From positions 16,036 to 80,035 of IMG/VR virus record IMGVR_UViG_3300033182_000157: 64,000 nucleotides of DNA; one strand, given 5' to 3'. How positions within the stretch are numbered: position 1 is the first letter of the stretch; each line of letters starts with the position of its first letter. This document shows positions 34,876 through 63,207 of the stretch, one piece after another. The DNA comes from a virus. The notes under the pieces were generated by a model that was given only the letters and a program-made list of their open reading frames with translations, had not been told where the DNA came from and did not search any database. A program made the position numbers and the translations under genes.

Positions 34876-34904
34876 TTGACATCTTGTGTGTTTTATAGTA
34901 TTAT
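34876..34904 (+). promoter_or_regulatory. Sigma70-type promoter heading the enzyme island
   Basis: TTGACA (34876-34881), 17-nt spacer, TATTAT (34899-34904) in the 64-bp gap after the structural operon. Confidence 0.75.
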
Positions 34905-34914
34905 ATACTATAAA
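34892..34914. repeat. Perfect 10-bp inverted repeat overlapping the -10 box (operator-like)
   Basis: TTTATAGTAT-tat-ATACTATAAA. Confidence 0.7.
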
Positions 34915-34930
34915 CTAAAGGCGTTTTCTT

Positions 34931-35263
34931 ATGGACCAAAGACTAGAAACTGTATTACAAGATGTTGATCATATCAACACTATTAACAATCAAAAAAGAT
35001 TACTAAAAGAGCAATATGTTGAAGATTGCGTTCTTTACTATAACGGCGGAAAATTTACTGTAACTAAAGAACTACTAGGATTTACAACACAACTAGGAAC
35101 ATCATACATTACAGACGATAATCTAGTACCAGTTGAAATTGATAAAGACGAGTTTAATCGTTTAATATCTAGTGTGTATTGGAACGCAACAAAAAAGTAT
35201 CACGCAGCATATCAAGAACTTATAAAAAACTCTAGAAATATTGAGGAACTACTCAATTTATGA
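34931..35263 (+). CDS. Hypothetical protein (110 aa)
   Basis: First ORF after the sigma70 promoter, coupled (ATGA) to the next gene; no recognisable motif. Confidence 0.6.
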   Translation: MDQRLETVLQDVDHINTINNQKRLLKEQYVEDCVLYYNGGKFTVTKELLGFTTQLGTSYITDDNLVPVEIDKDEFNRLISSVYWNATKKYHAAYQELIKNSRNIEELLNL

Positions 35264-36120
35264 CAGCAGGAGTTTTGTTTTTTGCGTATAACAATGATCT
35301 TGTTGACTATATTAAACAAGCAATTTATAACGCAAAACTAGTTAAAAAGCATTTAAACTTGCCAGTAGCAATAGTTACTGACAGTGTTAATTATCTTGAA
35401 AAAACGTATCCGTGGTATAAGAAATATGTTGATTATGTTATACCTAAAGGAACTGGACAAAATACATTTTCAAAAAAACACTATTATGCCGGTGAACACT
35501 TCTCTACTATGGCAGAATGGAAAAACGTGAACAGATTTGATGCGTATAACCTTTCACCATTTGATACCACCATTGTTTTAGATACTGATTACTTAATTAG
35601 TAACAACAACTTTCTTAAAGTATTAGATCAAGATGATGACTTGTTTATATACAAGGACAGTTATGATATTTCCTTAACAAGGAATATTCCAGGATTTGAA
35701 CGTATTTCAGATGATACCCTTGACTTTTATTGGGCAACAGTTTTAATTTTTAAGAAAACAGAGCGTACAAACCGTCTGTTTAAACTTGTACAATTTATAA
35801 GAGAACATTATCATTATTTTAGAACATTGTATAGAATACCTTTAAAGACTTTTAGAAACGATTTTGCGTTTAGTATTGCTATACATATTCTTAATGGATA
35901 TACTATAACAGACTGGCCTAAGATATTACCAGGTAAGATGTTATATTCTAGTCCAGAAGATGATTTGCTTACAATTAAAGATGAAAAATATACGTTTGTT
36001 GTAGGTAATAAATTTAGACGAGATAAAGTTAATGTAGTAACATTGACAGGCAGTAATATTCACGTTATGAATAAACTTCATTTAAATGAATTAATAGATA
36101 AGGAGTTTGAGCATGAGTAA
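35260..36120 (+). CDS. Glycosyltransferase, GT-A fold (GT8-like)
   Basis: AYNLSPFDTTIVLDTDY (DxD motif), RNDFAFSIA and late H motif (HVMNK). Confidence 0.7.
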   Translation: MTAGVLFFAYNNDLVDYIKQAIYNAKLVKKHLNLPVAIVTDSVNYLEKTYPWYKKYVDYVIPKGTGQNTFSKKHYYAGEHFSTMAEWKNVNRFDAYNLSPFDTTIVLDTDYLISNNNFLKVLDQDDDLFIYKDSYDISLTRNIPGFERISDDTLDFYWATVLIFKKTERTNRLFKLVQFIREHYHYFRTLYRIPLKTFRNDFAFSIAIHILNGYTITDWPKILPGKMLYSSPEDDLLTIKDEKYTFVVGNKFRRDKVNVVTLTGSNIHVMNKLHLNELIDKEFEHE

Positions 36121-36883
36121 AGGTTATGTAATTTTTGCTCAACCTAACGGTAAAAGCGATTATATTGCTCAAGCAGAATTGTTAGCGAAGAGTATACAAA
36201 AGTATAATACTATAAACAATGTAACAATAATATCAGAATTTGACGAAGATGATGCTGCGAACACAGATTGGAAAATAGAAAATCGATGGAAGGCATATAA
36301 TTTATCACCATACGATGAAACAGTAGTGTTAGACGCAGATATGTTGTTTTTTAGAAATGTAGATCATTGGTGGAATAAACTTGCTAACTATGATTTATTT
36401 TTTACTAGTGATGTATTAACATATAGAGGCGAAACTGTTACTAGTAATTACTATAGAAAAACATTTGAAAAGAATAATTTGCCTAATTTGTATTCAGCAT
36501 TTTATTACTTTAAAAAGACTGAAATAACAAAGCAGTATTTTAAATTGTTAGAATCTATTATGAAAAATTGGAAAACGTATTATCAACGTTATCTAAAAAA
36601 TATGTATCAAACTAAACAAAGTTTTGATCTATCATCTGCTTTAGCAGTAAAACTTTTAGGATTAGAAGATAGCGTTACGGATAATACACAAATACCAACA
36701 TTTATACATTTAAAACCACACGCACAAAATTGGAAAGCAGTTTCTGAAAAGTGTACTACAAGAATACCAGTGTATAAATTTAACAATAATTTAATGTTAG
36801 ATAGTTATATGTGTAACGATATTCTACATTATGTAGAAGATGAATTTGTTACACCTGAAATAAAGGAGTTCTTTAATGAATAG
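36113..36883 (+). CDS. Glycosyltransferase, GT-A fold (GT8-like), paralog of previous
   Basis: AYNLSPYDETVVLDADM (DxD). Start moved to ATG 36113 behind AGGAG. Confidence 0.7.
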   Translation: MSKGYVIFAQPNGKSDYIAQAELLAKSIQKYNTINNVTIISEFDEDDAANTDWKIENRWKAYNLSPYDETVVLDADMLFFRNVDHWWNKLANYDLFFTSDVLTYRGETVTSNYYRKTFEKNNLPNLYSAFYYFKKTEITKQYFKLLESIMKNWKTYYQRYLKNMYQTKQSFDLSSALAVKLLGLEDSVTDNTQIPTFIHLKPHAQNWKAVSEKCTTRIPVYKFNNNLMLDSYMCNDILHYVEDEFVTPEIKEFFNE

Positions 36884-37424
36884 TGCTGAAGAACGTAAAA
36901 GAATATTTAGAGAACAGTTACAAAAAACACAACAACAAAAGTTTTATGTAGGTTTTGAGGATTCTGGGTTTATTACAAGCGTTGTATCCAATCCGGAACA
37001 ATTAACTACAAAGGCTTGTGAAATTTCTAAAGAACTAGCAGAAGGATTTTTATCAGGTACGATAAACAAAGACACTTATATTGCTCTTCCTATAGGCGAT
37101 GGTTGGGAAATAGTTAAGAAAGAACAGCAAAAAAATGTTGCTGAAGTTTCTCGTAATTTTTATAGGGTAGAAGAAAAGCAAGATAAAGTACAATTAGTGA
37201 TTAATGTACAGGATAGTACACTTACATTAGAAGTCGATAGTAGTGTAGATAAAAGTACACTAACGTCCTATGGACTATATGTTTGTGATAAAAACTGTTT
37301 TCACATGTTACATCAATCTATTGTATTAGACCCAGAAAGACGAGTATATCCTTTAACAAAAGTAGATGATATTGACATATACGCAGGCGCCCACGCAGTA
37401 GGATTAGGCATAACTTATGTTTGA
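36876..37424 (+). CDS. Hypothetical protein (182 aa)
   Basis: AAGGAG RBS; overlaps both neighbours in the operon. Confidence 0.6.
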   Translation: MNSAEERKRIFREQLQKTQQQKFYVGFEDSGFITSVVSNPEQLTTKACEISKELAEGFLSGTINKDTYIALPIGDGWEIVKKEQQKNVAEVSRNFYRVEEKQDKVQLVINVQDSTLTLEVDSSVDKSTLTSYGLYVCDKNCFHMLHQSIVLDPERRVYPLTKVDDIDIYAGAHAVGLGITYV

Positions 37425-38745
37425 ACTAAAGTTTACTGATTACAATTTTTATTTTTTAGATCAAGGCAGTCCTAATGTCGAGGAAAACTACTACGATCTA
37501 ATTAACAAAGTGCCTTGGGCAATTAGAACAAACGCATTACCTTCTAATGAAAAGTATTTTGTTATAACAGACAATAGTAAGTTAGATGATAACTTTTTCA
37601 ATTTTACAACTAAGTTTGAAGATACGGTAGAAAATTCTACAATAGTATGGCAAAATGTAAGTGCTACTAATAGACTAACTTTTAATTCTAGCGGTTTACG
37701 TTGGGTAGGCGGCGATAGTTTTTCATTTGAAATACCTCAAGTAGGTGCGTATGTATTTCATAGTAGTTCTAACACACAAGCATACGATACAGCATACAAC
37801 GAAGTAACAAACTTAATAAATGAACATAGTTTAAAAAACATTAGCAACAGCGATTACAAAAAAATATTAGTATGGTGTAATGTTGGTGCTGATGTAGATT
37901 ACGGAGTTGAAAGTACTAAAGGTGCTAGACAAGCACTAGTTGACAACAACTTTGAAATAGATTTTGACGAGCCATATACTCCGTTACAAAGTGAATTCTT
38001 TAAAACAGTATACAAAACACCATATAGAATTGCTAATAAAATGATTAGAGAAAACGTTAATAGCAAATATGACATTGTGTTTATTTCTTATAACGAACCA
38101 AATGCGGAAGAAAATTGGCAGGCACTAAAAGCACGTTTTCCTAGAGCAAAAAGAGTACACGGTGTAAAAGGAATACACCAAGCACACATCGAAGCAGCCA
38201 AACAATGTTCTACAGAAATGTTTTGGGTAGTTGATGCAGATGCTAAAATTGACGAAGAGTTTAAATTTAACTATCTTGTTCCTAAACATGAATTAGACTT
38301 TGTTCACGTATGGCGTTCAAAAAATCCTGTAAATGATTTAATTTACGGATACGGCGGAGTAAAACTATTACCAACACAAAAAACAATCAATATGGATTTA
38401 TCTAAACCTGATATGACAACGAGTATATCAGATAAATTTAAACCAATGGGAACAGTATCAAATATTACAGCGTTTAATACAGATCCTTTTAATACTTGGA
38501 AATCAGCGTTTCGTGAATGCTGTAAATTAGCAAGTAAAAGTATTGACAGACAACACACTGAAGAAACAGAAGAACGTTTAACACATTGGCAGTTTGAAGG
38601 TGCTAATAGAAGATACGGAGAGTATGCTCAAATGGGCGCAAAACAAGGACGTGATTACGGAGAAGCAAATAGCAAATCTCCAAAAGACTTACGTAAGATA
38701 AATGACTTTGATTGGCTAAAGGAACAGTTTAATGAAAATACGTGA
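37417..38745 (+). CDS. Two-domain glycosyltransferase-like protein (degenerate N-terminal copy plus intact GT-A domain)
   Basis: C-half DIVFISYNEPNAEEN..RVHGVKGIHQAH..FWVVDAD..YGYGGVKL. N-half aligns by eye with 38732..39646 but lacks DxD. Confidence 0.65.
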   Translation: MFELKFTDYNFYFLDQGSPNVEENYYDLINKVPWAIRTNALPSNEKYFVITDNSKLDDNFFNFTTKFEDTVENSTIVWQNVSATNRLTFNSSGLRWVGGDSFSFEIPQVGAYVFHSSSNTQAYDTAYNEVTNLINEHSLKNISNSDYKKILVWCNVGADVDYGVESTKGARQALVDNNFEIDFDEPYTPLQSEFFKTVYKTPYRIANKMIRENVNSKYDIVFISYNEPNAEENWQALKARFPRAKRVHGVKGIHQAHIEAAKQCSTEMFWVVDADAKIDEEFKFNYLVPKHELDFVHVWRSKNPVNDLIYGYGGVKLLPTQKTINMDLSKPDMTTSISDKFKPMGTVSNITAFNTDPFNTWKSAFRECCKLASKSIDRQHTEETEERLTHWQFEGANRRYGEYAQMGAKQGRDYGEANSKSPKDLRKINDFDWLKEQFNENT

Positions 38746-39646
38746 TATTGATATTATATATCTAAGTTATGACGAGCCTAACGCTGATGAAAATTACGCC
38801 GACTTGCTTACAAAAGCACCGTGGGCCAAACGTGTACACGGAGTAGAAGGTAGCGATGCTGCTCATAAAATGTGTGCTGAAATGTCAGAAACAGATCGCT
38901 TTATTACTGTTGACGGTGACAACAAAATTTATGCTGACTTTTTAGAGCAAGAGATAGATTTTAATCAACACAAATACATAAGTGAAAGCGTGTTAAGTTG
39001 GTGCGGTTATAATGTAGTCAATGGACTGATGTATGGCAATGGCGGGTTAAAATGCTGGCCTAAAGATGTTGTTTTAAATATGAAAACACACGAAGCAAGT
39101 GATCCAAACGATTTAGCAGCTCAAGTAGAATTCTGTTGGAACTTAGATTATGTACAAATGAGTAGTTGCTATTCAAAAGTATATAACAATGCCAGTCCTT
39201 GGCAAGCCTGGAGAGCAGGTTTTCGTGAAGGTGTTAAAATGAGTTTAGATCAAGGTAAGAGGTTTAATAGTCTTACATTTAGGGAAGAAGTATATTGGCA
39301 AAACTTACATAGGTTACTTATTTGGTGTAACGTAGGAAGCGATGTTGAAAACGGACTATGGGCAATGTATGGCGCAAGACAAGGCGCATACATGACAAAT
39401 CTTACAGACTGGGATTATGTAAATGTACGTGATTTCAAATACTTGAACAATCTCTGGAAAACTCAAGTAAGTAAAGAAGTAAATGAAGATAATTTAATGG
39501 ACAAAATAAACGATGTAGGAAACGCTCTACAACGTGATTTACATATTGCTGTAACTTCAGTGTTTACTCCAACACAAAGTAAACAGTTTAAGGAAAGTTA
39601 TACTAATACAGATAGGACAGGACAAGGATTTATTGATGTTGAATAA
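38732..39646 (+). CDS. Glycosyltransferase-like protein, GT-A fold (GT2-like)
   Basis: DIIYLSYDEPNADEN..RVHGVEGSDAAH..FITVDGD..YGNGGLKCW..AWRAGFREGVKM. Confidence 0.65.
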   Translation: MKIRDIDIIYLSYDEPNADENYADLLTKAPWAKRVHGVEGSDAAHKMCAEMSETDRFITVDGDNKIYADFLEQEIDFNQHKYISESVLSWCGYNVVNGLMYGNGGLKCWPKDVVLNMKTHEASDPNDLAAQVEFCWNLDYVQMSSCYSKVYNNASPWQAWRAGFREGVKMSLDQGKRFNSLTFREEVYWQNLHRLLIWCNVGSDVENGLWAMYGARQGAYMTNLTDWDYVNVRDFKYLNNLWKTQVSKEVNEDNLMDKINDVGNALQRDLHIAVTSVFTPTQSKQFKESYTNTDRTGQGFIDVE

Positions 39647-41018
39647 ACTTGTAAAACGTTTAGGTAGACGATTAAAAATTGTAAAAGATCCTATTGATCG
39701 TATGTCAGAAGTAAAAGCAATTACTGATCAAATATCTCCTACCTTTTGTTTAGCAAAATGGCATCATACTACTATCTATTTACAAACTGGAGAAACACAC
39801 AGTTGTTATCATCCAGCACCGCATACAATACCGTTAGAAGAAATAGAAACAAATCCAAGTGCGTTACATAATACAAAAGAAAAGAAACAACAACGTTACC
39901 AAATGCTAAAAGGCGAAAAGCCTAGCGGTTGTCAGTATTGTTGGAACATTGAATGTATGGGCAAGGATTATATTAGTGACAGGCACGAACGTAATAGCGG
40001 AATCTATACAAAGCAACGACTACAAGAAATAGAAACAAACGATTGGAACTTTAATGTAAATCCTGAATACATTGAAATTTCGTTTGGCAATGAATGTAAT
40101 TTACGTTGCGGATACTGTCACCCTAAAGCAAGTAGTAGTTACTATAAAGAAATAGAACATTATGGCCCTTATAAAACTAAAAATCATACACAACACATAC
40201 GTAAATTAAACATTTATAAAAAGGAAGAAGAAAATCCTTATGTAGAAGCATGGTGGCGTTGGTGGCCTGAAGTAAGTAAAACTCTAAATATTTTGCGTAT
40301 TACCGGAGGGGAGCCACTACTACAACAAAGTACTTGGCGTCTGCTTGACGATTTAGAAACTAACCCTTTACCTAATCTTGAACTAAACATTAATTCTAAC
40401 TTAGCAGTAAAAAATGTACTAGTAAGACGCCTTGCTGATAAAGTAAATCATTTAGTTAAAAACGGAAAAATAAAACGTTTTAAACTTTTTACAAGTTTAG
40501 ATACTTGGGGCAAACCTGCCGAATATATTAGAACAGGTTTAGACTTACAGGTGTGGGAACAAAACTTTGATACGTGGATGACAAAAACAGATCAGCCTAT
40601 AACATTTATGGTAACGTTTAATATACTTTCAGTTACTACATTTGATCAATTGTTAGCAAAATTTTTAGAATGGCGTAAAAAATATCAAACAGGAAAAAGA
40701 CGTATTAGATTTGACACTCCGTATTTAAAAGAGCCTATTCAATATGATATGAATATACTTCCTAAAAGTTTTATGTCTTATATGGAACAACATTTACAGT
40801 TTATAAAAGACAATCAAGATGAAAATGACGTAAACAAATTTTCAAATCTTGAGTATGAAAAGTTCCGTCGTGTTGTAGATTATATGCGTACTACAGAATA
40901 TAGTACAGAGCGTTTAGAAGAAGGGCGTAAAGATTTTGTTATATGGTTTACTGAACACGATAAACGTAGAGGTACAAATTTTGCTGAAACGTTCCCAAAA
41001 CTAAAAAACGTTTTTTGA
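39636..41018 (+). CDS. Radical SAM enzyme with N-terminal twitch/SPASM-like Cys domain
   Basis: CNLRCGYC, ITGGEP; N-terminal FCLAKW..HSCYH..CQYC. ATG 39636 follows AAGGA. Confidence 0.85.
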   Translation: MLNKLVKRLGRRLKIVKDPIDRMSEVKAITDQISPTFCLAKWHHTTIYLQTGETHSCYHPAPHTIPLEEIETNPSALHNTKEKKQQRYQMLKGEKPSGCQYCWNIECMGKDYISDRHERNSGIYTKQRLQEIETNDWNFNVNPEYIEISFGNECNLRCGYCHPKASSSYYKEIEHYGPYKTKNHTQHIRKLNIYKKEEENPYVEAWWRWWPEVSKTLNILRITGGEPLLQQSTWRLLDDLETNPLPNLELNINSNLAVKNVLVRRLADKVNHLVKNGKIKRFKLFTSLDTWGKPAEYIRTGLDLQVWEQNFDTWMTKTDQPITFMVTFNILSVTTFDQLLAKFLEWRKKYQTGKRRIRFDTPYLKEPIQYDMNILPKSFMSYMEQHLQFIKDNQDENDVNKFSNLEYEKFRRVVDYMRTTEYSTERLEEGRKDFVIWFTEHDKRRGTNFAETFPKLKNVF

Positions 41019-42233
41019 TTGGTAATGTTCGTCTACTTGAAGGTTGCCATTAGTATATCTTATAGAGTTTTCAACAAGTAATAAAAACTCATCTACACTG
41101 TACTGATTGTAGTCTGCTCTTTTATAGTTATAATTTAAGACATCGACATTTCCTAAAGACCAATCTATTTGTTGTGTACGATTCATTTTAGAAAGCAGTT
41201 TACATACTCTTTTAAGTTCTTTTTCTAAAGCAGCCCATCGTTTTGCTGGATCTCTTATAAAATCAAATTCATAATCAAACCAGTCAGTATAAAGTTTATA
41301 TCCTAATCTTGCTAGGTTATAGTTTTGCCCCATTTGCCCCCAAATAATTATAGGTACTTTTTGGGCAACAACTTTAAAAGTTTTTTCACTGTAGAACAGA
41401 CTAGTTTCATTCCAGTCACTTTGCATTGTTTCGCAGGTTAGGTTAAACAATACTTGTTGATTTAGTTTTATACCTAAGTCGTTTGCCCAGTTAGTTTCAA
41501 AGTCTTCAGTGTCGACAATCATGGGAGTATTTTTTGACATAAACTTATCCATAGAGTCAGTATGAAAATAATTGCTACGATATTCACCGGGACGTACTTT
41601 GTCGTGACTAATTAATCCGTGTTTTGCTAATCCGCTATCGTGTAAACGCCAAACAGCATAACTCCTCCAAAAACGTTTACGTCTATTTAAGTTAAGAAAG
41701 TATTTTCCGTTATAATTTTCTAACAATGATATATGTCTTGGCTTAGATTTGCCAGCATCTATGTACATTGCTTTTTGAAAACTGTCCCAATGCATCATTT
41801 CTATAACATTTATTTTATTTTTCTTTTCGGTTAAACCATGCCAATATACATCAAATATTCCTTTTTCTCGTAAATTTCCGCTAATAAAAAATATTCCAGC
41901 AGGGTCAATATTATGCTTTACCGCGCTATTATATAATGCTTGTGAAACAGCATGATGTGGAACAGCCCATCCTTCATGAGAACCGTCTAGTACAAATACA
42001 CATTGTTTGTTGCGTAACAGATCTAAAAAGTTAGTCTTGATGCTACCTAAGATATCACTATCAAGATATATTCCTTGTTTATATGAATACTGACACATCA
42101 TTACACAGACCTTGTCAAATTCTCTATTCTTCATAAACGACAAGTGTTTACGATAATGATGAAAACTACCAGGCGGGTCTATCATCTCTCTAACATAAGT
42201 TGTGTCATTTAGCCATTCAGAAAAATATATCAT
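41001..42233 (-). CDS. Hypothetical protein, possible GT10 (fucosyltransferase)-like glycosyltransferase
   Basis: C-terminal NLTCET...FYSEKTFKVVAQKVPIIIWG resembles the GT10 E....Y.TEK....VP..G motif; LNLNRRKRFWR upstream. Confidence 0.4.
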   Translation of the reverse strand: MIYFSEWLNDTTYVREMIDPPGSFHHYRKHLSFMKNREFDKVCVMMCQYSYKQGIYLDSDILGSIKTNFLDLLRNKQCVFVLDGSHEGWAVPHHAVSQALYNSAVKHNIDPAGIFFISGNLREKGIFDVYWHGLTEKKNKINVIEMMHWDSFQKAMYIDAGKSKPRHISLLENYNGKYFLNLNRRKRFWRSYAVWRLHDSGLAKHGLISHDKVRPGEYRSNYFHTDSMDKFMSKNTPMIVDTEDFETNWANDLGIKLNQQVLFNLTCETMQSDWNETSLFYSEKTFKVVAQKVPIIIWGQMGQNYNLARLGYKLYTDWFDYEFDFIRDPAKRWAALEKELKRVCKLLSKMNRTQQIDWSLGNVDVLNYNYKRADYNQYSVDEFLLLVENSIRYTNGNLQVDEHYQSKNVF

Positions 42234-42236
42234 CAA

Positions 42237-42266
42237 TAAATACTCTTATAATAACAGCAATATTTA
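42237..42266. promoter_or_regulatory. Overlapping divergent T4-late-like promoter boxes
   Basis: TAAATA on + at 42237-42242 (towards 42279) and on - at 42266-42261 (towards 42233). Confidence 0.5.
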
Positions 42267-42278
42267 GTGGAGTAATTT

Positions 42279-55661: not shown

Positions 55662-55675
55662 AAATCCTCTTATGG

Positions 55676-55719
55676 TATTTACCAGGTTGTATTAACTACG
55701 CATTTTAATGTGGTAAATA
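55676..55719. promoter_or_regulatory. Back-to-back divergent late-promoter boxes flanking an ATTAACTACGCA element
   Basis: TAAATA on - at 55681-55676, ATTAACTACGCA at 55691-55702, TAAATA on + at 55714-55719; both boxes are preceded by GG. Confidence 0.6.
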
Positions 55720-55723
55720 TTTG

Positions 55724-56395: not shown

Positions 56396-57036
56396 AGTGG
56401 GATTATTTTTATAAATTTGACGAAGGTCACGACGGTGCTCCTGCGAATGTATTATACGAGCCATTTATTTCTGAAGATAAAACTTTATTCTTAATGCATT
56501 TTAATAACGACAACGATTATTTTGAGAATTTACATTACTCAGAAGAAATGGTAGATTTTTATTTTCGTAGAGAAGCAGGGTGGTTAGAAAAATTTGCTGA
56601 TTGTAATTTTACTCCTGAGATTGTTGACATTGATTATTATGAACGCAAGATTCTTTATAAATGGTATGATAAAAATTTAAACAGAGGATTGTTTGGAAAC
56701 GAATTTCAACTTCCAGATAATTGGCAACAACAAGTTAAAGATATTATTTCCAAGTTTGATGAACACGGTGTTTTTAAACTAAACTTATATCCGCATACGT
56801 TTTATTTTGATCAAGATGAAAATCTTCGTGTAAGCGATATGTATGCGTGTATTGATAAAACAGATTATATGATAGAAGATTATCTTATTAAACCTGTGCT
56901 AGATCCTACTGGCGGAATCAGTAGTGACAGGTTTACTATGTTTACCGATAACGGAATGGTAGATTTAAAGAAAGTATATGATTTAACTATGAGTATTAAC
57001 TATGGTGAATGGCCGGGAGATTTTTTAAATGGCTGA
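56392..57036 (+). CDS. Protein-kinase-like-fold protein with atypical catalytic loop
   Basis: FRREAGWL..TPEIVDID..ILYKWY..GVFKLNLYPHTF..LRVSDM. Start moved to ATG 56392 (ATGA overlap). Paralog of 61974..62660. Confidence 0.45.
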   Translation: MKWDYFYKFDEGHDGAPANVLYEPFISEDKTLFLMHFNNDNDYFENLHYSEEMVDFYFRREAGWLEKFADCNFTPEIVDIDYYERKILYKWYDKNLNRGLFGNEFQLPDNWQQQVKDIISKFDEHGVFKLNLYPHTFYFDQDENLRVSDMYACIDKTDYMIEDYLIKPVLDPTGGISSDRFTMFTDNGMVDLKKVYDLTMSINYGEWPGDFLNG

Positions 57037-57574
57037 GTTTATTGGTATATGCGATACAATCGATTGGAGTGCTTTATGTACCCAATTAGCAGAACAAGAA
57101 GCAGCATATATTGGACCACGACATGATGTAGGACACGATGTTCCGGGAGTTGAAGAAGTTGCCGGACAACTACGTGACGCTGGTTATCAGATGAAACATG
57201 AAGGCGGAAATGCTAGTTGGGATATGTACTTAGCAGGTGTAAACTTTGATGAAAGCATAGTACAGCAATTTATGGATTTTGTTGGAATGGACAGTTATAT
57301 TAATTGTTGGATAAGTCGTGTTAAACCTGGAGATGTTGCTCCATGGCATTGGGACATAACAGATGACGAAGCAACGTTAAACGCAGGTAAGCCTCTTGTT
57401 CGTTACCATTGCCATATAAGTCCACCTGAACCAGGACACGTTCTAATGGTTGAAGACCAATGTTTGTATATGCAAGAGCAAGGAGCAGTTTGGAAGTGGC
57501 CTGATCGTAAAAGTTGGCACGCCGGTGCTAACGCAGGATTAGTTCCAAAGTACCTGTTTAATATATGGGGTTAA
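57029..57574 (+). CDS. Fe(II)/2OG oxygenase or cupin (AspH-like)
   Basis: WISRVKPGDVAPWHWD...SWHAGANAGLVPKYLF. Confidence 0.7.
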   Translation: MAEFIGICDTIDWSALCTQLAEQEAAYIGPRHDVGHDVPGVEEVAGQLRDAGYQMKHEGGNASWDMYLAGVNFDESIVQQFMDFVGMDSYINCWISRVKPGDVAPWHWDITDDEATLNAGKPLVRYHCHISPPEPGHVLMVEDQCLYMQEQGAVWKWPDRKSWHAGANAGLVPKYLFNIWG

Positions 57575-57575
57575 T

Positions 57576-58136
57576 ATGAAAAAATATATAGGAAATTGTT
57601 CAGATGTTATTGATTGGAATGAAGTTCTAGAACAATTATATAACTCGCAACCCGAGAAACACGGATATAATAATCCATACGGTATAGATCACGATTACCA
57701 CGATATTGATCCTCTGCATCTAAAAGGTATTGAAACATATAAAGATAGACAAGAAGCGGTAGAATTTTTTACCTATGTAAACGGTAAAGAATATGATATG
57801 AGTGTCAATGATAAATTTGCAGAATGGTTAGGCTGTAAACCTTTCTTGTCGTGGATTAGTAGAATAGATCCTGGACGTTGTGTTCCGCCACATATTGATT
57901 ACGATGATGTTATTATGCTTGAAGAAGCAAATATATCAGAAGATAAATGGTTACGGTATCACTGCCATATTTCAGAACCTGAGATTGGTGCTGTTCTTAT
58001 GTTAGATGATGGTTCTAGTTACCATATGGAAGAACAAGGTTCGGTATTTCAATGGCCGGAAGTACGGAGTGTTCACAGTGGTGTAAATAGTGGCTGGAAA
58101 CCTAAATTCCTTTTTAACTTTATAGGTATTAAATGA
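57576..58136 (+). CDS. Fe(II)/2OG oxygenase or cupin (AspH-like), tandem paralog
   Basis: WISRIDPGRCVPPHID...SVHSGVNSGWKPKFLF. Confidence 0.7.
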   Translation: MKKYIGNCSDVIDWNEVLEQLYNSQPEKHGYNNPYGIDHDYHDIDPLHLKGIETYKDRQEAVEFFTYVNGKEYDMSVNDKFAEWLGCKPFLSWISRIDPGRCVPPHIDYDDVIMLEEANISEDKWLRYHCHISEPEIGAVLMLDDGSSYHMEEQGSVFQWPEVRSVHSGVNSGWKPKFLFNFIGIK

Positions 58137-59215
58137 GTTATTGTAATGCTCCTTGGCGCAGAATTTTTATAGATGCTAGTGGAAAGAAATATCCTTGCTG
58201 CCAGTTTGATCGTCGAGGCGAATACAATTTAGATGAAATAAAACAAAAAATGTTAAACAGAGAGCCAGTTAAGCAATGTGAACGATGCGATGTTCAATCG
58301 CAGTCTGGCGAAATATCATTGAGAGAACAATATAATAAACTTTATGGGTATCCATTAAGACCTACTATTCGTGATGTAGAAATAGGGGTTGACAACGTGT
58401 GTAATTTACAATGTCTAATTTGTTCTAGTAGGTCTAGTCATAAATGGTTTGATGTAGAGAATAAATTATTTGGCGATACTGTTAGTCCAACAAAGTATCA
58501 ACAGCACGAAGAATACAAAACTATTGATTGGAAAAATGTAAGAAGTTTACATTTATATGGGGGCGAGCCTTTTTATAGTCCTAATGTAGAAACAATGTTA
58601 GATTATATTTCTAATAAAATAGATTGGAAAAATTTTAAACTAAGTGGGTCTACTAATTGTACACGTATGCCTAAAGACTCTTTGTTAGAAAAAATAAAAT
58701 CGTGTAAAGAGTTTCGTTTTAATCTAAGTATAGATGGTTATGGAAAGATAAACGACTATTCTAGAAAAGGTAGTAATTGGAATGACGTATTAGAAAATAT
58801 GCGTAAATGGCATACATTAGCAGAAAAACATGACAATATTCTTATAGAAGTTTTCTCTACGGTATCAATCTATACGGCTAATATGTACGACAAGTTAGAA
58901 GAGTTTATAAGAGAAAACTTTCCACACTTTAAAATAGTGTTTCAGCATTTGCAAGTGCCTGAATGGCTGTGTATTTCAAATACACCTTTAGAATATAAAC
59001 AAATGGTTAAACAATATACAACTAATGAAACTATTTTAAAAGTTTTAGACGTAGAAGGTCCTGACTTATTCGATCAGTTTGTATATTTTACAAATAAAGT
59101 TAACCCTGACGGGCTAGAGGAAGCAAATCCTAATTTGTATAAGTTTATGAAAAATTATGAATTACACGATTGTAAGGATGCTATAGTACAAAAGATAAGA
59201 GAATACAAAGTATGA
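58133..59215 (+). CDS. Radical SAM enzyme with N-terminal twitch domain
   Basis: YCNAPW..YPCC..CERC; core CNLQCLIC and LYGGEP. Confidence 0.85.
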   Translation: MSYCNAPWRRIFIDASGKKYPCCQFDRRGEYNLDEIKQKMLNREPVKQCERCDVQSQSGEISLREQYNKLYGYPLRPTIRDVEIGVDNVCNLQCLICSSRSSHKWFDVENKLFGDTVSPTKYQQHEEYKTIDWKNVRSLHLYGGEPFYSPNVETMLDYISNKIDWKNFKLSGSTNCTRMPKDSLLEKIKSCKEFRFNLSIDGYGKINDYSRKGSNWNDVLENMRKWHTLAEKHDNILIEVFSTVSIYTANMYDKLEEFIRENFPHFKIVFQHLQVPEWLCISNTPLEYKQMVKQYTTNETILKVLDVEGPDLFDQFVYFTNKVNPDGLEEANPNLYKFMKNYELHDCKDAIVQKIREYKV

Positions 59216-59694
59216 AAATTTTAATGACAGGTCATACACAGGGATTAGGCAAAACACTATATGATTACTTTTCTAAAGAAAATGAAGTAGTTGGTATTAG
59301 TCGTTCTACTGGACACGATTTAAAAAATCAAAATACTATTGATTATATTATCAGTGAAGCAGAAAATTATGACATCTTTATTAATAATACATTCCAATTT
59401 GAAAAACAACTAGAACTTGTAAAAGCACTTCGTGGCAAAACTCGTATAGTAAGTTTTGGAAGTATTGCTAGTATCTTTTCACAAAACGTTGAATGGAACA
59501 TTTACGGCAAGTACAAAAAAGATTTAGAAGATTACCACAGACAACAAAGTAGCGGAGGAGCAAAAGATATATTATTGATTAATATCACAGAAGCAACCAT
59601 TGAAAAGTCTAGTGACGATATTATTAAACTAATGGAACTTTGGATTGAAAGTCCTGTTATTACTTTTGCGGAGTTTAGTAATGACATTATGTAA
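59212..59694 (+). CDS. Minimal short-chain dehydrogenase/reductase
   Basis: ILMTGHTQGLG, DIFINN, FGS, YGKYK (YxxxK); only 160 aa. Confidence 0.7.
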   Translation: MKILMTGHTQGLGKTLYDYFSKENEVVGISRSTGHDLKNQNTIDYIISEAENYDIFINNTFQFEKQLELVKALRGKTRIVSFGSIASIFSQNVEWNIYGKYKKDLEDYHRQQSSGGAKDILLINITEATIEKSSDDIIKLMELWIESPVITFAEFSNDIM

Positions 59695-60589
59695 AACTCC
59701 GGATAGTTATAGTGTTGAATATATCCAAAATAATGGAATAAAAGAAAACAGAATTATTCCGTTATTTGATTTAAAAATAGAGCAAGTAATACACGAAGTT
59801 ATATGTAATAAATTGGATATATTTGATGAAAGTTTGCCAATAGTAAACAAACAGTACACAGCAGATGTAATAGATCGCTTTATAAACACCTTTACAGAGC
59901 ACGTACAAGCGTCACAGCGCAACGATCTTTCTGGCTTTGAAGCATATAAGCGAGTTGATATTTGCGCAGGCTGTACGCAGTATATAGACGATTTATATAT
60001 GAAGCACAGCCAAATTCAAGTTCTAGAAAATGAGTATAATTACCATAAACTTTTAGGAACCAAAAGTGTAACAGTAGACACACTTCAACCAAACGTACCT
60101 CTTATTATAAGTTTACCATTTTGCCACGATGCGAGAGTACATCCGGATTTAGATACTATTTTAGAAATTGCTCTACAAAAGAATATTCCGGTCCACGTAG
60201 ATGCTGCTTGGATTGCTTGTGCTAAAGATATTAAATTTGATTTTAGCCATCCTGCTGTTCATAGTTTTGCTATCAGTATGAGCAAAGGATATGGGACTAG
60301 CGGATGGAATAGGATAGGACTACGTTGGACTAGAGAGTTTGCTATTGACAGTATTACACTGCTAACTGATTTTTATCAGCACACAGCATTTCCTATAGCA
60401 GTTGCTAATTACATGCTGGACCGTATCCCGCCTGATCATTTGTGGAACACGCATGAAGAAAATTATTATAAGGTGTGTAAAGACTTTGATCTAGAACCTA
60501 CACAAGCAATTCATGTAGCAACACAAGGTCCTAATTGTATCTACGGTGTAGCACCTTTATTGCGTTATTTGGAGTATAACAATGAATAA
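59681..60589 (+). CDS. PLP-dependent enzyme (fold type I), paralog of 48121..48954
   Basis: GCTQYIDDLY, PVHVDAAW, SFAISMSKG, GWNRIGLRW. Start moved to ATG 59681 behind GGAG. Confidence 0.65.
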   Translation: MTLCKTPDSYSVEYIQNNGIKENRIIPLFDLKIEQVIHEVICNKLDIFDESLPIVNKQYTADVIDRFINTFTEHVQASQRNDLSGFEAYKRVDICAGCTQYIDDLYMKHSQIQVLENEYNYHKLLGTKSVTVDTLQPNVPLIISLPFCHDARVHPDLDTILEIALQKNIPVHVDAAWIACAKDIKFDFSHPAVHSFAISMSKGYGTSGWNRIGLRWTREFAIDSITLLTDFYQHTAFPIAVANYMLDRIPPDHLWNTHEENYYKVCKDFDLEPTQAIHVATQGPNCIYGVAPLLRYLEYNNE

Positions 60590-61163
60590 TTTCCATAGAT
60601 ATCTTAACTTGCCATTTGAAATATCAAAGCCTGATATATTTTCTAACGTAACCAGAGATTGTGTGAAACACGAAATGCTTCCTTTAGATTTTCCCGAAGC
60701 ACAACCGTTATTTAAATTTTTAGATCAGTTTAATTTAATGTGCGATCATCTAGAATACTTCTATACTCCTCCAAAGGGAGGAAAGGTTCTCATACATACA
60801 GATAATGGGCGTTTTGATAATATGACAAAAATAAACATCAGTTGGGGGTCAGAGGATGCGGTAACACGATGGTGGGATTGTCCTAATTATAGACCTTTAG
60901 AATTTGAAGGAGATAGCGATACCTACGGAGAAACAGATTCTTATCACAATGTATATACAGCAGACGAAGACGATTCGACATTCTTATACGAAGCAAATAC
61001 AAATCGCCCTAGTTTATTAAATGTAGGTTTATTTCATTCAACATATAACCCATCAGATATAGGACGATATACTCTTTGTTTTATTTTATTTCACAAGGAT
61101 ACAGAAAAGAATGTACAGTGGGATGAAGCACTAGAAATTTTTAGTAACTATCTAAGTGACTAA
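60582..61163 (+). CDS. Fe(II)/2OG oxygenase or cupin-like protein
   Basis: FYTPPKGGKVLIHTD...FHSTYNPSDIGRYTL (HxD...H...R). Confidence 0.55.
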   Translation: MNNFHRYLNLPFEISKPDIFSNVTRDCVKHEMLPLDFPEAQPLFKFLDQFNLMCDHLEYFYTPPKGGKVLIHTDNGRFDNMTKINISWGSEDAVTRWWDCPNYRPLEFEGDSDTYGETDSYHNVYTADEDDSTFLYEANTNRPSLLNVGLFHSTYNPSDIGRYTLCFILFHKDTEKNVQWDEALEIFSNYLSD

Positions 61164-61947
61164 TACCTAATGTTTTACGAAACTCTTCTGTAAATTTACC
61201 GTCAATGCGTAAGGCGTAAGTTTGAGCCATAACACGATTGCCGCCGTGCCAATCTTGATCGTTCCACCACGCTGCTCTGGTATTTAGGCTGTACTTGTTT
61301 TTAGTTTTAGGATCCCATAAGTAAAACTGATTACGAGTATCAGGACGAATATGTATAAATTCATTACGGTGAGGATATGTTTTATTAATGCCGTTATTAG
61401 CATCTAAGTCCCTGTGCTCAAATGGAAGACCGTCGTGTTCGCAGTGAAAGAATATAACACGACCGATGTGTTCAAATATACCTTCTTCTTTTAGTTTAAG
61501 AACCCAATTAACTGTTTTAGGAAAATACTCTGCTTCTTCTGTAAGTTGTCTTTCTCCTGGGCGATCGTTCCAATCACCTTCTTCCCATAAGAAATAATAT
61601 ATGTAAGGATCGTAGGCACCCATTGCCATCTTAAGATAGCGTGTAAATAAGTTACGTTGTTTATAATCTTTAAAGTCAGTTGGCCACAATTTCATACCCT
61701 CTGCTTTAATAGGGTCGTCATCTGGAAGAGCCATAAAGTCATTCATTGCTTGATATATAGGAGTCCAATTAACTTTGTAACTCATATCATCAAATGTAAA
61801 ACCGGGTTTCATCCAAGTACCTTCTTTGGCAAATTCTCTCGCCAACGCAAACCCTTTATATATTTCTGGTTGTAATTTATCAAACGTACTCATATCCAAG
61901 TACGGTTCTAAGTCAAAGTATTTTTGTCCGCCAATTCCTTTTATCAT
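61141..61947 (-). CDS. Fe(II)/2OG oxygenase or cupin-like protein
   Basis: GRVIFF..GLPFEHRD...WWNDQDWHGG..YALRIDG. Confidence 0.55.
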   Translation of the reverse strand: MIKGIGGQKYFDLEPYLDMSTFDKLQPEIYKGFALAREFAKEGTWMKPGFTFDDMSYKVNWTPIYQAMNDFMALPDDDPIKAEGMKLWPTDFKDYKQRNLFTRYLKMAMGAYDPYIYYFLWEEGDWNDRPGERQLTEEAEYFPKTVNWVLKLKEEGIFEHIGRVIFFHCEHDGLPFEHRDLDANNGINKTYPHRNEFIHIRPDTRNQFYLWDPKTKNKYSLNTRAAWWNDQDWHGGNRVMAQTYALRIDGKFTEEFRKTLGISHLDSY

Positions 61948-61951
61948 AATA

Positions 61952-61969
61952 ATACTTATCGGTAAGTAT
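61952..61969. promoter_or_regulatory. Palindromic bidirectional late-promoter element
   Basis: ATACTTA-TCGG-TAAGTAT gives TAAGTA on each strand, each 5 nt from an ATG (61947 on -, 61974 on +). Confidence 0.6.
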
Positions 61970-61973
61970 ATGT

Positions 61974-62660
61974 ATGAATACAGATTTTGAATATTATTAC
62001 AACAATGTTCCTGGACACGGCAAGTGTAGAAATAATCTAATTTATACCAGCCTTGTTAATAAAGAGCAGACTAAGTTTGTTCAATGGTATTATAATGATA
62101 CTGGATATCATAAAGGACAGAACCAAGTTGTTGATCCGTATAAAATGAGAGAAAAGTGGGATAGAGAAATACATTATCTACATCTTATGGGCACACATTT
62201 TCCTCAGCACGTTCCTACTTATGATGTAGATATTTTAGAAAGAAAAATTTATCTAGATATACAAGGCCCTGATTTTTGGGAGATGGCAGGGTGCCTAACT
62301 GAAAATTACGATAAAATATTACCAGACTGGCAAGACCAAATGCTTGAAATAATCAAAGCACATAAAAGTTTAGGGCTACACAAATATAGTATGCATCCAA
62401 GTAGTTACTTTATAGTAGATGGAAAACTTAAAAGTATTAATTACTTTTTTACATACCAAGAAGATGAGCCATTTGTTAGCATAGCAGATGTTGAAAGCCA
62501 CATATACAGCACTCGTCAAGATGAAATGCGTAAGCACTTAGAAACACTAGGCATTGAATGGGATAAACCACAACCTTGGGAAGTAATGGATAAACTATGC
62601 TGGAATAGTTTTAGAACAAACTACCCGGAAGATTTTATAGAGAAAGCACTTAATGTATAA
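61974..62660 (+). CDS. Protein-kinase-like-fold protein with atypical catalytic loop
   Basis: WDREIHYL..HVPTYDVDILERKIYL..LPDWQDQM..GLHKYSMHPSSY..LKSINYF; paralog of 56392..57036. Confidence 0.45.
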   Translation: MNTDFEYYYNNVPGHGKCRNNLIYTSLVNKEQTKFVQWYYNDTGYHKGQNQVVDPYKMREKWDREIHYLHLMGTHFPQHVPTYDVDILERKIYLDIQGPDFWEMAGCLTENYDKILPDWQDQMLEIIKAHKSLGLHKYSMHPSSYFIVDGKLKSINYFFTYQEDEPFVSIADVESHIYSTRQDEMRKHLETLGIEWDKPQPWEVMDKLCWNSFRTNYPEDFIEKALNV

Positions 62661-63207
62661 GATAGTTCCCTTTTCAGATGATTTAAACTTAGAAGAATTT
62701 TATATCAAAGCAAAAGCAAAAGGTTATGAAAACAATTCAAGTCGCTTTTGGTTAAAAGACTGTTTTCGCAACGAAACAGAAAGCGAAACTTGGATTCTAT
62801 TTTATAACGATAAAGCGGTAGGAAGTGTGGCAGCACATTCGTTTCCGGAGATGGGAGAGAACGCATATCGCATTGCTGCTCGTACTTGTATACTAACAGA
62901 TGAAATAGATACTCCTACACTAAGAACACGTAATCAAATAATTACACACCAACACGCAACAGGGCAGTTTCTTATTCCTGCTTGTATAGAATGGGCAGGT
63001 AAAGAAAACAATCTGTATATAACATCTAATAAGTTAGAAGCAGGATCACAACGACTAGTACATACTGTTTATTTTCCCGCAATGGAAAAAAGCGGACAAG
63101 TAGAAAACCACGGTGAAATAGAATACCGTGGTGCTAATCAAACTGTTTGGAAATTAAACGTAGAGAGATTCTACGAAGAACTAAACAAATATCCTAGATG
63201 GAATTAA
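62653..63207 (+). CDS. GNAT-fold N-acyltransferase-like protein
   Basis: WILFYNDKAVGSVAAH, YRIAARTCIL, GQFLIPACIEWA, LYITSN pattern; 184 aa. Confidence 0.5.
   Translation: MYKIVPFSDDLNLEEFYIKAKAKGYENNSSRFWLKDCFRNETESETWILFYNDKAVGSVAAHSFPEMGENAYRIAARTCILTDEIDTPTLRTRNQIITHQHATGQFLIPACIEWAGKENNLYITSNKLEAGSQRLVHTVYFPAMEKSGQVENHGEIEYRGANQTVWKLNVERFYEELNKYPRWN

Follow-up and report, generated by a model that had tools for sequence, protein, structure and literature searches.

Pelagimyophages and cyanomyophages, which are aquatic T4-like myophages, carry among their structural genes a variable island known as the host recognition cluster (HRC), in which tail fibres are accompanied by cassettes encoding GT8 transferases, a UDP-glucose 6-dehydrogenase and radical SAM enzymes (Zaragoza-Solas et al. 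2020, PMC7029224). The phages bearing this cluster have an Asp/Asn beta-hydroxylase among their core genes, and modification of the host O-chain is the role proposed for the cluster (PMC7029224). In the cultured Ralstonia phage RsoM2USA, a cassette of genes that are all annotated as hypothetical (ORF347-354; MG752970; PMC8504454) comes immediately after ORF361, the gene of the giant virion protein, and fibre-like genes. Similar fibre-linked islands are already published, without an assigned function. Virus-encoded virion glycosylation is represented by the capsid and tail-tube glycans of mycobacteriophages (Freeman et al. 2023, as cited in PMC12619734). The cytoplasmic virion glycosylation of mycobacteriophages and chloroviruses involves soluble viral GT-A transferases with genes beside structural genes, as at the locus described here. 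However, these systems are not known to include an array of radical SAM/oxygenase tailoring enzymes, and for our locus virion glycosylation is a prediction.

Here, we analyzed a 64,000-nucleotide stretch (the window) of a contig that constitutes an 80-kb fragment of a T4-like jumbo phage that has not been cultured. The capsid protein of this phage shares about 70% identity with its counterparts in the cultured T4-like jumbo phages GAP32, CBB and Serratia BF, and thus the phage lineage differs from that of the HRC. Directly 3' of the tail-fibre genes we found a 28-kb island (34,931-63,207) of 32 ORFs, 28 on the plus and 4 on the minus strand of the window. The island is 99.4% coding and leaves 159 nt of non-coding DNA; the some 32 tightly packed genes proposed in the first-pass annotation are therefore present. 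The predicted content comprises nine radical SAM enzymes, six iron-oxygenase-type proteins with an HxD...H motif, five GT-A-fold domains, one nucleotide-sugar dehydrogenase, one PP-loop ATPase, two probable PLP proteins, and SDR-like and kinase-like proteins. With nine radical SAM and six oxygenase-type proteins, the enzyme load is far larger than that of the HRC. In line with the earlier claim, family searches of the island proteins gave no domain of transport, replication, NRPS or PKS type, and none of the 32 proteins contains a transmembrane segment. Neither an exporter nor a lipid-carrier transferase was found among them. Taken together, the island is a genuine, coordinated enzyme block of a jumbo phage, for which a sugar decoration with extensive editing is the likeliest product.

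The left part of the island, module A (g14-g20), is a sugar-transferase cassette with five GT-A-fold domains and one radical SAM enzyme carrying an N-terminal twitch domain; g21 and g22 probably belong to it as well. Its first gene, g14 (34,931-35,263, plus strand), encodes 110 amino acids without Pfam match, but its slot is conserved in the related genome G004 (50% identity) and in RsoM2USA (ORF354; 27%, E 1e-7). The next two plus-strand genes, g15 (35,260-36,120) and g16 (36,107-36,883), are paralogous GT8-like sugar transferases (mutual alignment E 4.5e-9). The g16 protein matches PF03407 with 24.6 bits (cutoff 22), and the profile of the g15/g16 family, in which the DxD motif is invariant, has glycogenin as its only match (E 2e-4). 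For g17 (36,876-37,424, plus strand; 182 amino acids) no family match was obtained, and RsoM2USA carries a similar-sized gene at this position. On the same strand, g18 (37,417-38,745) contains two GT-A-like domains (residues 4-173 and 219-411), both of which align to the GT-A-fold protein g19 (38,732-39,646). The predicted structure of g19 (pLDDT 80, pTM 0.76) matches GT-A folds at Z 9-10.4 over residues 1-153, and chlorovirus PBCV-1 A64R is among its fold matches (E 3.8e-4). Thus, the four to five glycosyltransferase-like genes noted earlier are accounted for. The last gene of module A, g20 (39,633-41,018, plus strand), encodes the N-twitch radical SAM enzyme (323.7 bits to NF033640, cutoff 170), which is 37% identical to ORF349 of RsoM2USA, a member of the same cassette. 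On the minus strand, g21 (41,001-42,236; 411 amino acids) has no family match, its GT10 lead in the Atlas search (score 0.79) is at chance level only, and it recurs in G004 with 57% identity. The plus-strand gene g22 (42,279-43,505) encodes a nucleotide-sugar 6-dehydrogenase of the UDP-glucose dehydrogenase type (PF00984 1.6e-18; PF03721 1.5e-15); its match to TIGR03026 (E 1e-45, followed by AglM/TuaD) agrees with the initial assignment.

The right part, module B (g23-g45), appears from its sequence to be a radical SAM/oxygenase tailoring toolbox. The CxxxCxxC motif occurs in nine island proteins (g20, g23, g24, g30, g31, g32, g33, g34, g39), which all match PF04055 and/or NCBIfam radical SAM models, so that the count of nine radical SAM enzymes holds; apart from g20, all of them lie in module B. 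Its most conserved trio is g23-g25 (43,537-46,148, plus strand), found in 76, 72 and 74 of 80 related loci, respectively. The radical SAM protein g23 has a BlsE-like core, and BlsE (PDB 7vob), the cytosylglucuronate decarboxylase of blasticidin S biosynthesis, is its sole PDB sequence match (E 5.7e-7); its gene directly follows the predicted uronic-acid-making gene g22. Since the match spans the radical SAM core only (33 bits against the BlsE equivalog, cutoff 400), it indicates likeness in possible chemistry, not family membership. The short radical SAM protein g24 (PF04055) carries a C-terminal Cys cluster. Its neighbor g25 is Rossmann-like, but the methyltransferase proposed for this gene matched nothing in family and profile searches, and the g25 profile had no PDB match. 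A B12-binding radical SAM enzyme of class B, the methyltransferase type, is encoded by g30 (49,633-51,120, plus strand; PF02310 6e-10, TIGR04072 2.7e-22, PhpK family 3e-19). Two converging pairs follow (51,110-55,661): g31 (N-twitch) and g32 (short) on the plus strand, g34 (N-twitch) and g33 (short) on the minus strand. The two pairs are paralogous, the partners overlap within each pair, and g31 and g32 are neighbors in nearly all loci. The fourth N-twitch enzyme is g39 (58,133-59,215, plus strand). In family NF033640 (N_Twi_rSAM), a catalogued family with no member of known substrate, g31, g34 and g39 score 334.6, 405.6 and 186.8 bits, so that together with g20 the range is 187-406 bits (cutoff 170). 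Each of the four carries a Cys-rich auxiliary domain N-terminal to the CxxxCxxC core. What sets this island apart from the family is the presence of four old paralogs (19-27% identical) together with five other radical SAM enzymes.

The six HxD...H proteins that had been predicted as hydroxylases (g26, g35, g37, g38, g42, g43) were recovered at different levels of evidence: g26 matches PF05118 (E 3.9e-11), g35 does so weakly (2.2e-3), g43 was assigned by its fold, and g37, g38 and g42 are counted by motif alone. The Asp/Asn beta-hydroxylase-type oxygenase g26 and its neighbor g27 (445 amino acids, no family assignment) occupy 46,148-48,128 on the plus strand; this pair recurs in 14 loci, and its Atlas lead is a weak Fringe-like one (TM 0.40). 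A second conserved plus-strand pair (48,094-49,636) consists of g28, a probable PLP enzyme, and g29, a PP-loop ATPase with a QueC-like Cys tail. Residues S183-x-S185-K186 of g28 are invariant, and at the Lys region it matches threonine aldolase weakly. Its paralog g41 (E 7e-71) shares the SxSK motif and gives weak MfnA/GntC matches at the Lys region. Both count as probable PLP enzymes, with weak matches to PLP fold type I. The PP-loop assignment of g29 is confirmed by its SGGADS sequence (SGGxDS motif), and NAD synthase, TilS and QueC models match at 1e-6 to 6e-4. Further downstream on the plus strand lie g35 (oxygenase-like), g36 (kinase-like) and the paralogous HxD...H cupin-like proteins g37 and g38 (E 7e-32) at 55,721-58,136, followed by g40, g41 and g42 (59,212-61,163), of which g40 is a short SDR-like protein (SDR models at 5e-5) and corresponds to the SDR noted earlier. 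The minus-strand gene g43 (61,141-61,947) encodes an Fe(II)/2OG oxygenase fold from a strongly conserved family of more than 1,137 clusters, none of which is named. Its predicted structure (pLDDT 80, pTM 0.82) matches 2OG double-stranded beta-helices at Z 9-10, and H178, D180 (H178-x-D180 motif), H193, H199 and H234 are invariant. At the right end (61,974-63,207, plus strand), g44 has a protein-kinase-like fold (profile against TTK kinase E 7e-4) and g45 has no family match; the GNAT assignment of g45 was not reproduced in family or profile searches. The kinase fold of g36 and g44 (paralogs, E 4e-6) is supported by weak likeness, but the catalytic Asp residues are not conserved. In G004, the island homologs end at g44/g45.

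Comparison with related genomes indicated that the island consists of two joined modules and is not one indivisible 28-kb unit. In G004, G001, G002 and RsoM2USA, the fibre genes are directly followed by module A. RsoM2USA is distant (capsid protein only 49% identical), and the carriers of the fibre-linked module must have different hosts. Its cassette reads g14-g15-g16-x-g19-g20-g18C-g25-like (27-46% identity), so that module A only is present; from module B it has the g25-like gene in the cassette and a second N-twitch radical SAM enzyme elsewhere. The single unit of some 28 kb proposed earlier does not hold, because the radical SAM/oxygenase part is located 77-90 kb from module A in two close relatives (G001, G002). 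For the same reason, adjacency to the fibres, which had been used as an argument for the whole island, is conserved for module A and argues for this module only. At least 229 IMG/VR stretches contain module B, with a shuffled gene order but persisting linkage. Within 10 kb on either side of the g34 homolog, a median of 12.5 island families was present (80 loci), and module B genes covered a median of 68% of the DNA (80 loci); the suggested linkage test therefore came out in favor of linked homologs. Among loci of at least 15 kb, module B was next to module A in 25 of 54.

The control elements are of two kinds. The best match of the promoter scan (11/12), TTGACA-17-TATTAT (34,876-34,904, plus strand), sits in the gap before g14, one of only a few such gaps between genes, and TTGACA-17-TACTAT with TG precedes g23 (43,502-43,530, plus strand). 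A AATAAATAC box lies before g22 (42,235-42,243, plus strand) and also before the fibre genes g06, g08 and g11; all four copies in the window are intergenic and upstream of plus-strand genes. The divergent control region at 55,675-55,719 carries a TAAATAC box before g34 (minus strand) and ATTAACTACGCA plus TAAATA before g35 (plus strand). Six of the 12 genome copies of TAAATAC fall into the 2.5% of non-coding DNA, and the arrangement ATTAACTAC-N11-17-TAAATA is also found upstream of a T4-type baseplate gene and of g06. The earlier claim of late-type promoters holds in part: the structural-gene boxes before g22, g34 and g35 are in line with it, but the two strongest matches (g14, g23) are sigma-70-like.

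As the best explanation we tentatively propose a cytoplasmic pathway in which a glycan is made and then modified, with the fibres of the phage itself as the probable recipient. In the cytoplasm of the infected cell, g22 would oxidize a nucleotide sugar to a uronic acid and the transferases would assemble a short glycan. Module B might then edit the sugar carbons: the radical SAM enzymes by decarboxylation, epimerization or deoxygenation and C-methylation, the oxygenases by hydroxylation, and the PP-loop and PLP pair by amidation or amination. The product would then be transferred to an acceptor made by the phage; the fibre or baseplate proteins, whose genes lie immediately upstream, are the most probable candidates. 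Substrate sugar, step order and acceptor are what we infer here. The enzyme inventory, the solubility of all proteins, the linkage of module A to the fibres and the linkage within module B point, with due caution, in this direction, as do the BlsE match of g23 next to the sugar dehydrogenase and the boxes that g22, g34 and g35 have in common with baseplate and fibre genes. On the other hand, sugar-specific tailoring families (DegT aminotransferase, RmlB/C/D, nucleotidyltransferase) were not recognized, most radical SAM matches ranking below NF033640 are peptide maturases, and the classical targets of Asp/Asn hydroxylases are proteins or lipid A. Moreover, adjacency fails to tie module B to the fibres because of its distant location in G001 and G002, the promoter matches before g14 and g23 differ from the structural-gene box, and neither collagen-like nor other obvious acceptor repeats were found in the fibre proteins.

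Remodeling of the host envelope, which we consider unlikely, would involve the same soluble enzymes. They would alter precursors of LPS core, O-chain or capsule at the inner membrane face for export by host flippases, which might block superinfection or keep progeny from sticking to debris. This is the published reading of the GT8/UDP-glucose dehydrogenase/radical SAM cassettes in the pelagimyophage cluster (PMC7029224). The GT8-like g15 and g16 and a very weak match of g35 to the lipid A hydroxylase LpxO would fit it, and the sigma-70-like promoters would permit early expression. However, the island lacks any membrane protein, flippase, polymerase, ligase or polyprenyl-phosphate transferase. 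Since module A is kept beside the fibres in phages of differing hosts, Ralstonia included, a phage-borne acceptor fits better than host-specific surface glycans.

Somewhat less probable still is that no sugar intermediate is involved and that module B acts directly on amino-acid side chains in a large phage protein, which it would epimerize, C-methylate, hydroxylate and cross-link in the manner of proteusin-type maturation. Many NCBIfam matches below NF033640 are SPASM/twitch peptide maturases (PapB at 2.7e-12 for g39; StsB, CcpM, YhhB), but every such score is far under its cutoff. Likewise, g26 and g35 belong to the Asp/Asn beta-hydroxylase family, the fold of g43 resembles prolyl and aspartyl hydroxylases and g30 is of the class B type used in peptide C-methylation; yet the island also holds a sugar dehydrogenase and five transferase domains. 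A precursor peptide gene was not found and the 159 nt of non-coding DNA leave no room for one, nor were RRE and leader-peptidase domains detected in the island.

We regard it as improbable that the island makes a free small molecule during infection, for example a cofactor analog or a compound resembling aminoglycosides or nucleoside antibiotics, to serve as a signal or as a weapon against competitors or defenses. BtrN, AprD4, GenK and BlsE are known examples from aminoglycoside and nucleoside-antibiotic pathways, and the mixture of twitch and B12 radical SAM enzymes, oxygenases, PLP and adenylating enzymes resembles such pathways. BlsE is the nearest solved relative of g23, the best fold match of g43 is a nucleoside-antibiotic pathway hydroxylase (7v4m, Z 10.2) and all island proteins are soluble, but exporter and self-resistance genes are absent from the island, and the fibre linkage of module A and the structural-gene boxes would be left unexplained. 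Least probable of all is hypermodification of nucleic acid, in which the bases of phage DNA or tRNA would receive an adduct to evade host nucleases. DNA glycosylation is known in T4-like phages, the tail of g29 is QueC-like (PF06508 E 2.8e-4; QatC 5.8e-4), g33 shows weak QueE likeness and Foldseek ranks thymine-7-hydroxylase first for g43. However, the queuosine-family scores are all under their cutoffs with models covered in part only, the thymine hydroxylase match (TM only 0.27) is not the top one after re-alignment, and DpdA/TGT, QueD, hydroxymethylase, DNA kinase and pyrophosphorylase were not found in the window.

Whichever molecule carries the product, a jumbo phage devotes 28 kb to 32 soluble modifying enzymes, and this block of two joined modules is widely conserved.

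The 32 genes g14-g45 (window 34,931-63,207) make up a phage enzyme island that is real, conserved and abundant and is composed of two modules. Module A (34.9-41.0 kb) is a fibre-linked transferase cassette consisting of g14-g20, probably together with g21-g22, and module B (43.5-63.2 kb, g23-g45) is the radical SAM/oxygenase part. A g34 homologue was found in at least 229 IMG/VR stretches (60-76% identity), and linkage was quantified within 10 kb on either side of it over the best 80 of these loci. Here, a median of 12.5 different island families surrounded the g34 homologue and a median of 68% of the DNA was covered by them. The first-pass annotation had claimed one coordinated island and had named synteny as a check; the homologues in these loci are not unlinked, with the said median of families per locus. 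Gene order and orientation were rearranged between the 80 related loci, and the most constant members were g23, g24, g25, g31, g32, g34 and g35, each of which was present in 65-80 of them.

The idea of a single pathway beside the fibre genes stood only in part, since module A stays with the fibre genes, whereas module B is not tied to them. In the relative G004 (capsid 90% identical), the region from the baseplate genes through g44 is collinear with the window. In two further relatives, G001 and G002 (capsid 86% and 84% identical), g15-g16-x-g19-g18C-g20 comes after the fibre genes, and beyond it the DNA is unrelated. The radical SAM/oxygenase genes of G001 are located about 77-90 kb from its fibre-linked cassette, and their flanks gave phosphatase-type matches only and no clue from context. 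In G002, nothing but a g30 homologue turned up, located about 90 kb off at the contig end. Among 50,697 GenBank phage records, the cultured Ralstonia phage RsoM2USA (MG752970) was the sole carrier of g15, g19 and g20 homologues. Its cassette (g14-g15-g16-x-g19-g20-g18C plus a g25-like gene) lies right behind the gene of the giant virion protein ORF361 and that of a fibre with a collar domain, and its capsid protein is 49% identical to that of the window phage. Another N-twitch radical SAM gene of RsoM2USA (126,846-128,228), which shares 36% identity with g20, stands isolated at a distance of about 90 kb from the fibre-linked cassette, with neighbors annotated as hypothetical. Because of the layouts of G001, G002 and RsoM2USA, we treated modules A and B separately. 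Of 54 related loci with a length of 15 kb or more, 25 have the two modules side by side and thus, their junction is common but not obligatory.

The window comprises bases 16,036-80,035 of a single virus contig of 80,035 bp, which has no terminal repeat and ends on its right side 800 nt past the island. Upstream of the window, the contig encodes head proteins of T4 type (major head protein PHROG 138, prohead protease PHROG 207, portal PHROG 213) as well as gp46/47-like nuclease subunits. With its counterparts in 350-kb jumbo phages (Vibrio 2.275.O, Cronobacter GAP32, Pectobacterium CBB, Serratia BF), the capsid protein shares 68-71% identity, and it is 84-90% identical to copies on IMG/VR contigs of 160-270 kb (CheckV completeness 44-76%). 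Given these capsid identities and the T4-type head genes, the contig represents part of the genome, roughly 350 kb in size, of a T4-like jumbo phage that is uncultured, and the earlier assumption of a jumbo phage holds. Near-identical DNA was not found in GenBank phages, and a search with the 682-aa protein adjoining the portal gene likewise yielded no match. A 200-aa head-operon protein encoded between the portal and prohead genes (positions 3808-4407 of the whole record L001, minus strand) gave an MptE-like/DUF115 (Maf-type) match below threshold (PF01973: E 0.027, 14.7 bits, cutoff 34.6), which does not confirm it as a Maf-like glycosyltransferase. When bacterial genomes were scanned with g34, the sole match was a 4.9-kb contig in the 3.2-Mb Crocinitomicaceae bin JBDNIA01, which carries g28-g34-g35-g36-g37 homologues. 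A second contig of the same bin carries a capsid gene 84% identical to that of the window phage. The island contig looks like phage DNA that was binned together with the genome of a member of the Bacteroidota; this gives a weak hint at the host.

Baseplate and fibre proteins occupy window 1-34,866; among them are a T6SS/gp5-like spike, a protein of 4,511 aa, a tail-collar protein and a fibre of 1,976 aa that ends in an endosialidase chaperone. The 4,511-aa protein is encoded by a single ORF (9053-22588), shares 54-55% identity with its counterpart in G004 and gave short, weak matches to ORF361, the >288-kDa virion protein of RsoM2USA. The fibre proteins g09, g10 and g11 (23223-32776) are homologous to one another over some 150-400 N-terminal residues (27-42% identity), which is expected if these fibres dock on one shared adaptor. 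We also inspected the fibre proteins for collagen-like or other repeats as acceptor and found no G-x-y runs.

Within the island, we counted 32 ORFs, 28 of them on the plus strand, and 159 nt of non-coding DNA, which agrees with the roughly 32 tightly packed genes of the first-pass annotation. Nine radical SAM enzymes had been predicted, and the CxxxCxxC motif together with model matches was recovered in nine proteins. Seven of the nine exceeded the Pfam cutoff for PF04055; g20 and g30 remained below it and their assignment is backed instead by the NF033640 and B12-radical SAM models. The enzymes fall into four types: N-terminal-twitch proteins (g20, g31, g34, g39), short proteins with a C-terminal Cys cluster (g24, g32, g33), g23 and the B12-binding g30. 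For NF033640 (N_Twi_rSAM), whole-protein scores of 323.7 (g20), 334.6 (g31), 405.6 (g34) and 186.8 bits (g39) were obtained, all above the curated cutoff of 170 bits, and by score these four proteins are assigned to this family. Their core motifs are CNLRCGYC, CNLKCRMC, CNLKCIMC and CNLQCLIC, and a PF13186 twitch/SPASM region precedes PF04055 in g31 (residues 9-69), g34 (31-110) and g39 (4-41). The N-twitch family is catalogued, but we know of no member with a known function or substrate. Our literature search found nothing on radical SAM enzymes in jumbo phages, on the N-terminal twitch or on post-translational modification of tail fibres. For g23, BlsE was the sole PDB sequence match; with 33.1 bits against a threshold of 400 (TIGR04466), g23 is not a member of the BlsE equivalog family. 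Complex prediction for g31 and g32 (score 0.00, mark 0.32) counts neither for nor against binding.

The HxD...H motif was present in all six proteins for which it had been reported, with family or fold backing for g26, g43 and, weakly, g35. The g26 protein is a clear member of the Asp/Asn-hydroxylase family (PF05118: 43.5 bits, cutoff 22.6); fused g26-g27 proteins, an Atlas lead, were not found when searched for. The structure model of g43 (pLDDT 80) matched the double-stranded beta-helix fold of 2OG oxygenases (Z 9-10), and an invariant H178-x-D180 is followed by later His residues, so that g43 is predicted to adopt an Fe(II)/2OG oxygenase fold. At 90% identity, its family falls into more than 1,137 clusters, which lack names and Pfam domains and lie on contigs of up to 379 kb. 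For g35, a weak oxygenase-family match was obtained, and g37, g38 and g42 carry the motif alone.

The four to five transferase-like genes of the first reading were recovered as well. The g16 protein matched PF03407 (24.6 bits, cutoff 22), and the g15/g16 profile had glycogenin as only match (E 2e-4), covering the N-terminal 115 residues with an invariant D76-x-D78; g15 and g16 are tentatively called GT8-like. The g19 model showed a GT-A fold, with chlorovirus A64R among its fold matches, and g18 consists of two g19-like domains. Virion glycosylation by virus-encoded transferases is established for chloroviruses. The proposed UDP-glucose dehydrogenase and PP-loop ATPase correspond to g22, a nucleotide-sugar dehydrogenase, and g29. 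Of the two proposed PLP enzymes, the paralogues g28 and g41 share an invariant SxSK, but their similarity to PLP enzymes is weak; the two kinase-fold proteins gave a weak kinase-like match but lack the catalytic aspartates. For g25 and g45, our searches lent no support to the proposed methyltransferase and GNAT, respectively. Profile searches with the g43, g19, g25 and g45 families against PDB sequences gave no meaningful matches. Nothing among the domain matches resembled replication, transport, NRPS or PKS genes, as had been stated before. No hydrophobic 19-residue stretch in g14-g46 reached the membrane threshold, and no Pfam family of a flippase, polymerase, transporter or initiating polyprenyl-phosphate transferase was found in the window; these absences argue against a surface polysaccharide locus of the Wzx/Wzy or ABC type. 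A RiPP cluster was likewise not supported: the island has no precursor peptide gene, RRE or leader-peptidase domain, its smallest ORF encodes 110 aa and only the 159 nt lie outside genes.

Late-type promoters had been suggested for the island. The T4 late-promoter octamer TATAAATA was absent from both strands of window 1-64000 (0 copies; shuffles expect 11.2 ± 3.6), and TATAAATA was rejected as late signal of this phage. TAAATAC occurs 12 times in the genome, six of them in the 2.5% of non-coding DNA, and intergenic copies stand before the island genes g22 and g34, three fibre genes (g06, g08, g11) and one gene on the head side. In addition, a bipartite ATTAACTAC-N11-17-(A)TAAATA arrangement, in which ATTAACTAC stands 11-17 nt upstream of the TAAATA box, was found ahead of a T4-type baseplate gene (L001 8448), g06 (window 5517-5550) and g35 (55691-55719); the other three ATTAACTAC copies lie within genes. 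This pair may represent an activator site combined with a late box. Since such boxes are common to fibre/baseplate genes and g22, g34 and g35, parts of the island share candidate signals with structural genes. In contrast, the two best sigma-70-type matches of the island lie in the gaps before g14 and g23, and these entry points look like host-type promoters, so that the original suggestion holds only in part.

Taken together, these data favor reactions in the cytoplasm with a substrate that is soluble or made by the phage, because all enzymes are soluble and neither an export/lipid-carrier step nor a precursor peptide is present, because the uronic-acid-forming dehydrogenase g22 adjoins g23, the only solved relative of which is the glucuronide decarboxylase BlsE, and because five transferase domains are encoded and module A is kept with fibre genes across phages of differing hosts. 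As a tentative working model, a glycan would be assembled in the cytoplasm, heavily tailored and then put on fibre or baseplate proteins; within this model, the acceptor is less probable than the sugar part. Several findings count against it: module B lacks a fixed link to fibres, peptide maturases account for many of the secondary radical SAM matches, and no classical sugar-tailoring family was seen in the island. Moreover, proteins or lipid A are the usual substrates of Asp/Asn hydroxylases.

Four alternatives range from unlikely to very unlikely. Remodeling of the host envelope has been proposed for host recognition clusters (HRCs) of pelagimyophages, the fibre-linked variable islands of which contain GT8, UDP-glucose dehydrogenase and radical SAM cassettes, with O-chain modification suggested as a guess (Zaragoza-Solas et al., 2020; PMC7029224). 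Our window resembles the HRCs of aquatic T4-like myophages in that the island comes after the fibre genes g06-g13 and that the order is shuffled among relatives. Direct protein editing would use the radical SAM and oxygenase proteins without a glycan, and a further alternative is a free metabolite. Nucleic-acid modification was considered as a 7-deazaguanine (queuosine/Dpd) pathway, which the genes of the window do not support, since g29 matched PF06508 (QueC) with 20.9 bits (cutoff 22) in its C-terminal tail only, QueE models scored 30-36 bits against cutoffs of 206-260, and QueD and DpdA/TGT were absent within the window.

For mycobacteriophages, virion glycosylation by phage-encoded transferases is described as established in PMC12619734 (citing Freeman 2023). 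The same paper lists four glycosyltransferase groups in the widely shared gene set of the moraphage lineage; moraphages, a different phage lineage, were set aside as kin of the window phage. Neither the N-twitch family catalogue nor HRC islands nor the glycosylation systems of mycobacteriophages and chloroviruses include a tailoring array like module B, and the island has no characterized counterpart. Returning to the fibre-glycan model, it is rather doubtful, but conceivable, that module B constitutes a multi-step radical pathway (with no fewer than eight steps by radical SAM enzymes and six by oxygenases), which hyper-edits glycan or protein on the fibres of very abundant aquatic jumbo phages.

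About a tenth of a genome of some 350 kb is given to oxygen-sensitive and oxygen-dependent tailoring enzymes, which points to chemistry not yet described, and the gene set is common, as indicated by the frequency of g34 (at least 229 IMG/VR stretches) and by the size of the g43 family (>1,137 clusters). The presence of the fibre-linked cassette in a cultured phage is a new practical point, and module A is therefore directly testable at the bench in RsoM2USA. If the product decorates fibres, the view of host range and of immune/defence evasion in large environmental phages would have to be revised and the island would be a source of new radical SAM reactions. If module B edits fibres, this would be a novel class of post-translational modification of virions, by which host recognition is tuned or the fibres are shielded, with the uncharacterized N-twitch radical SAM family as key catalyst.
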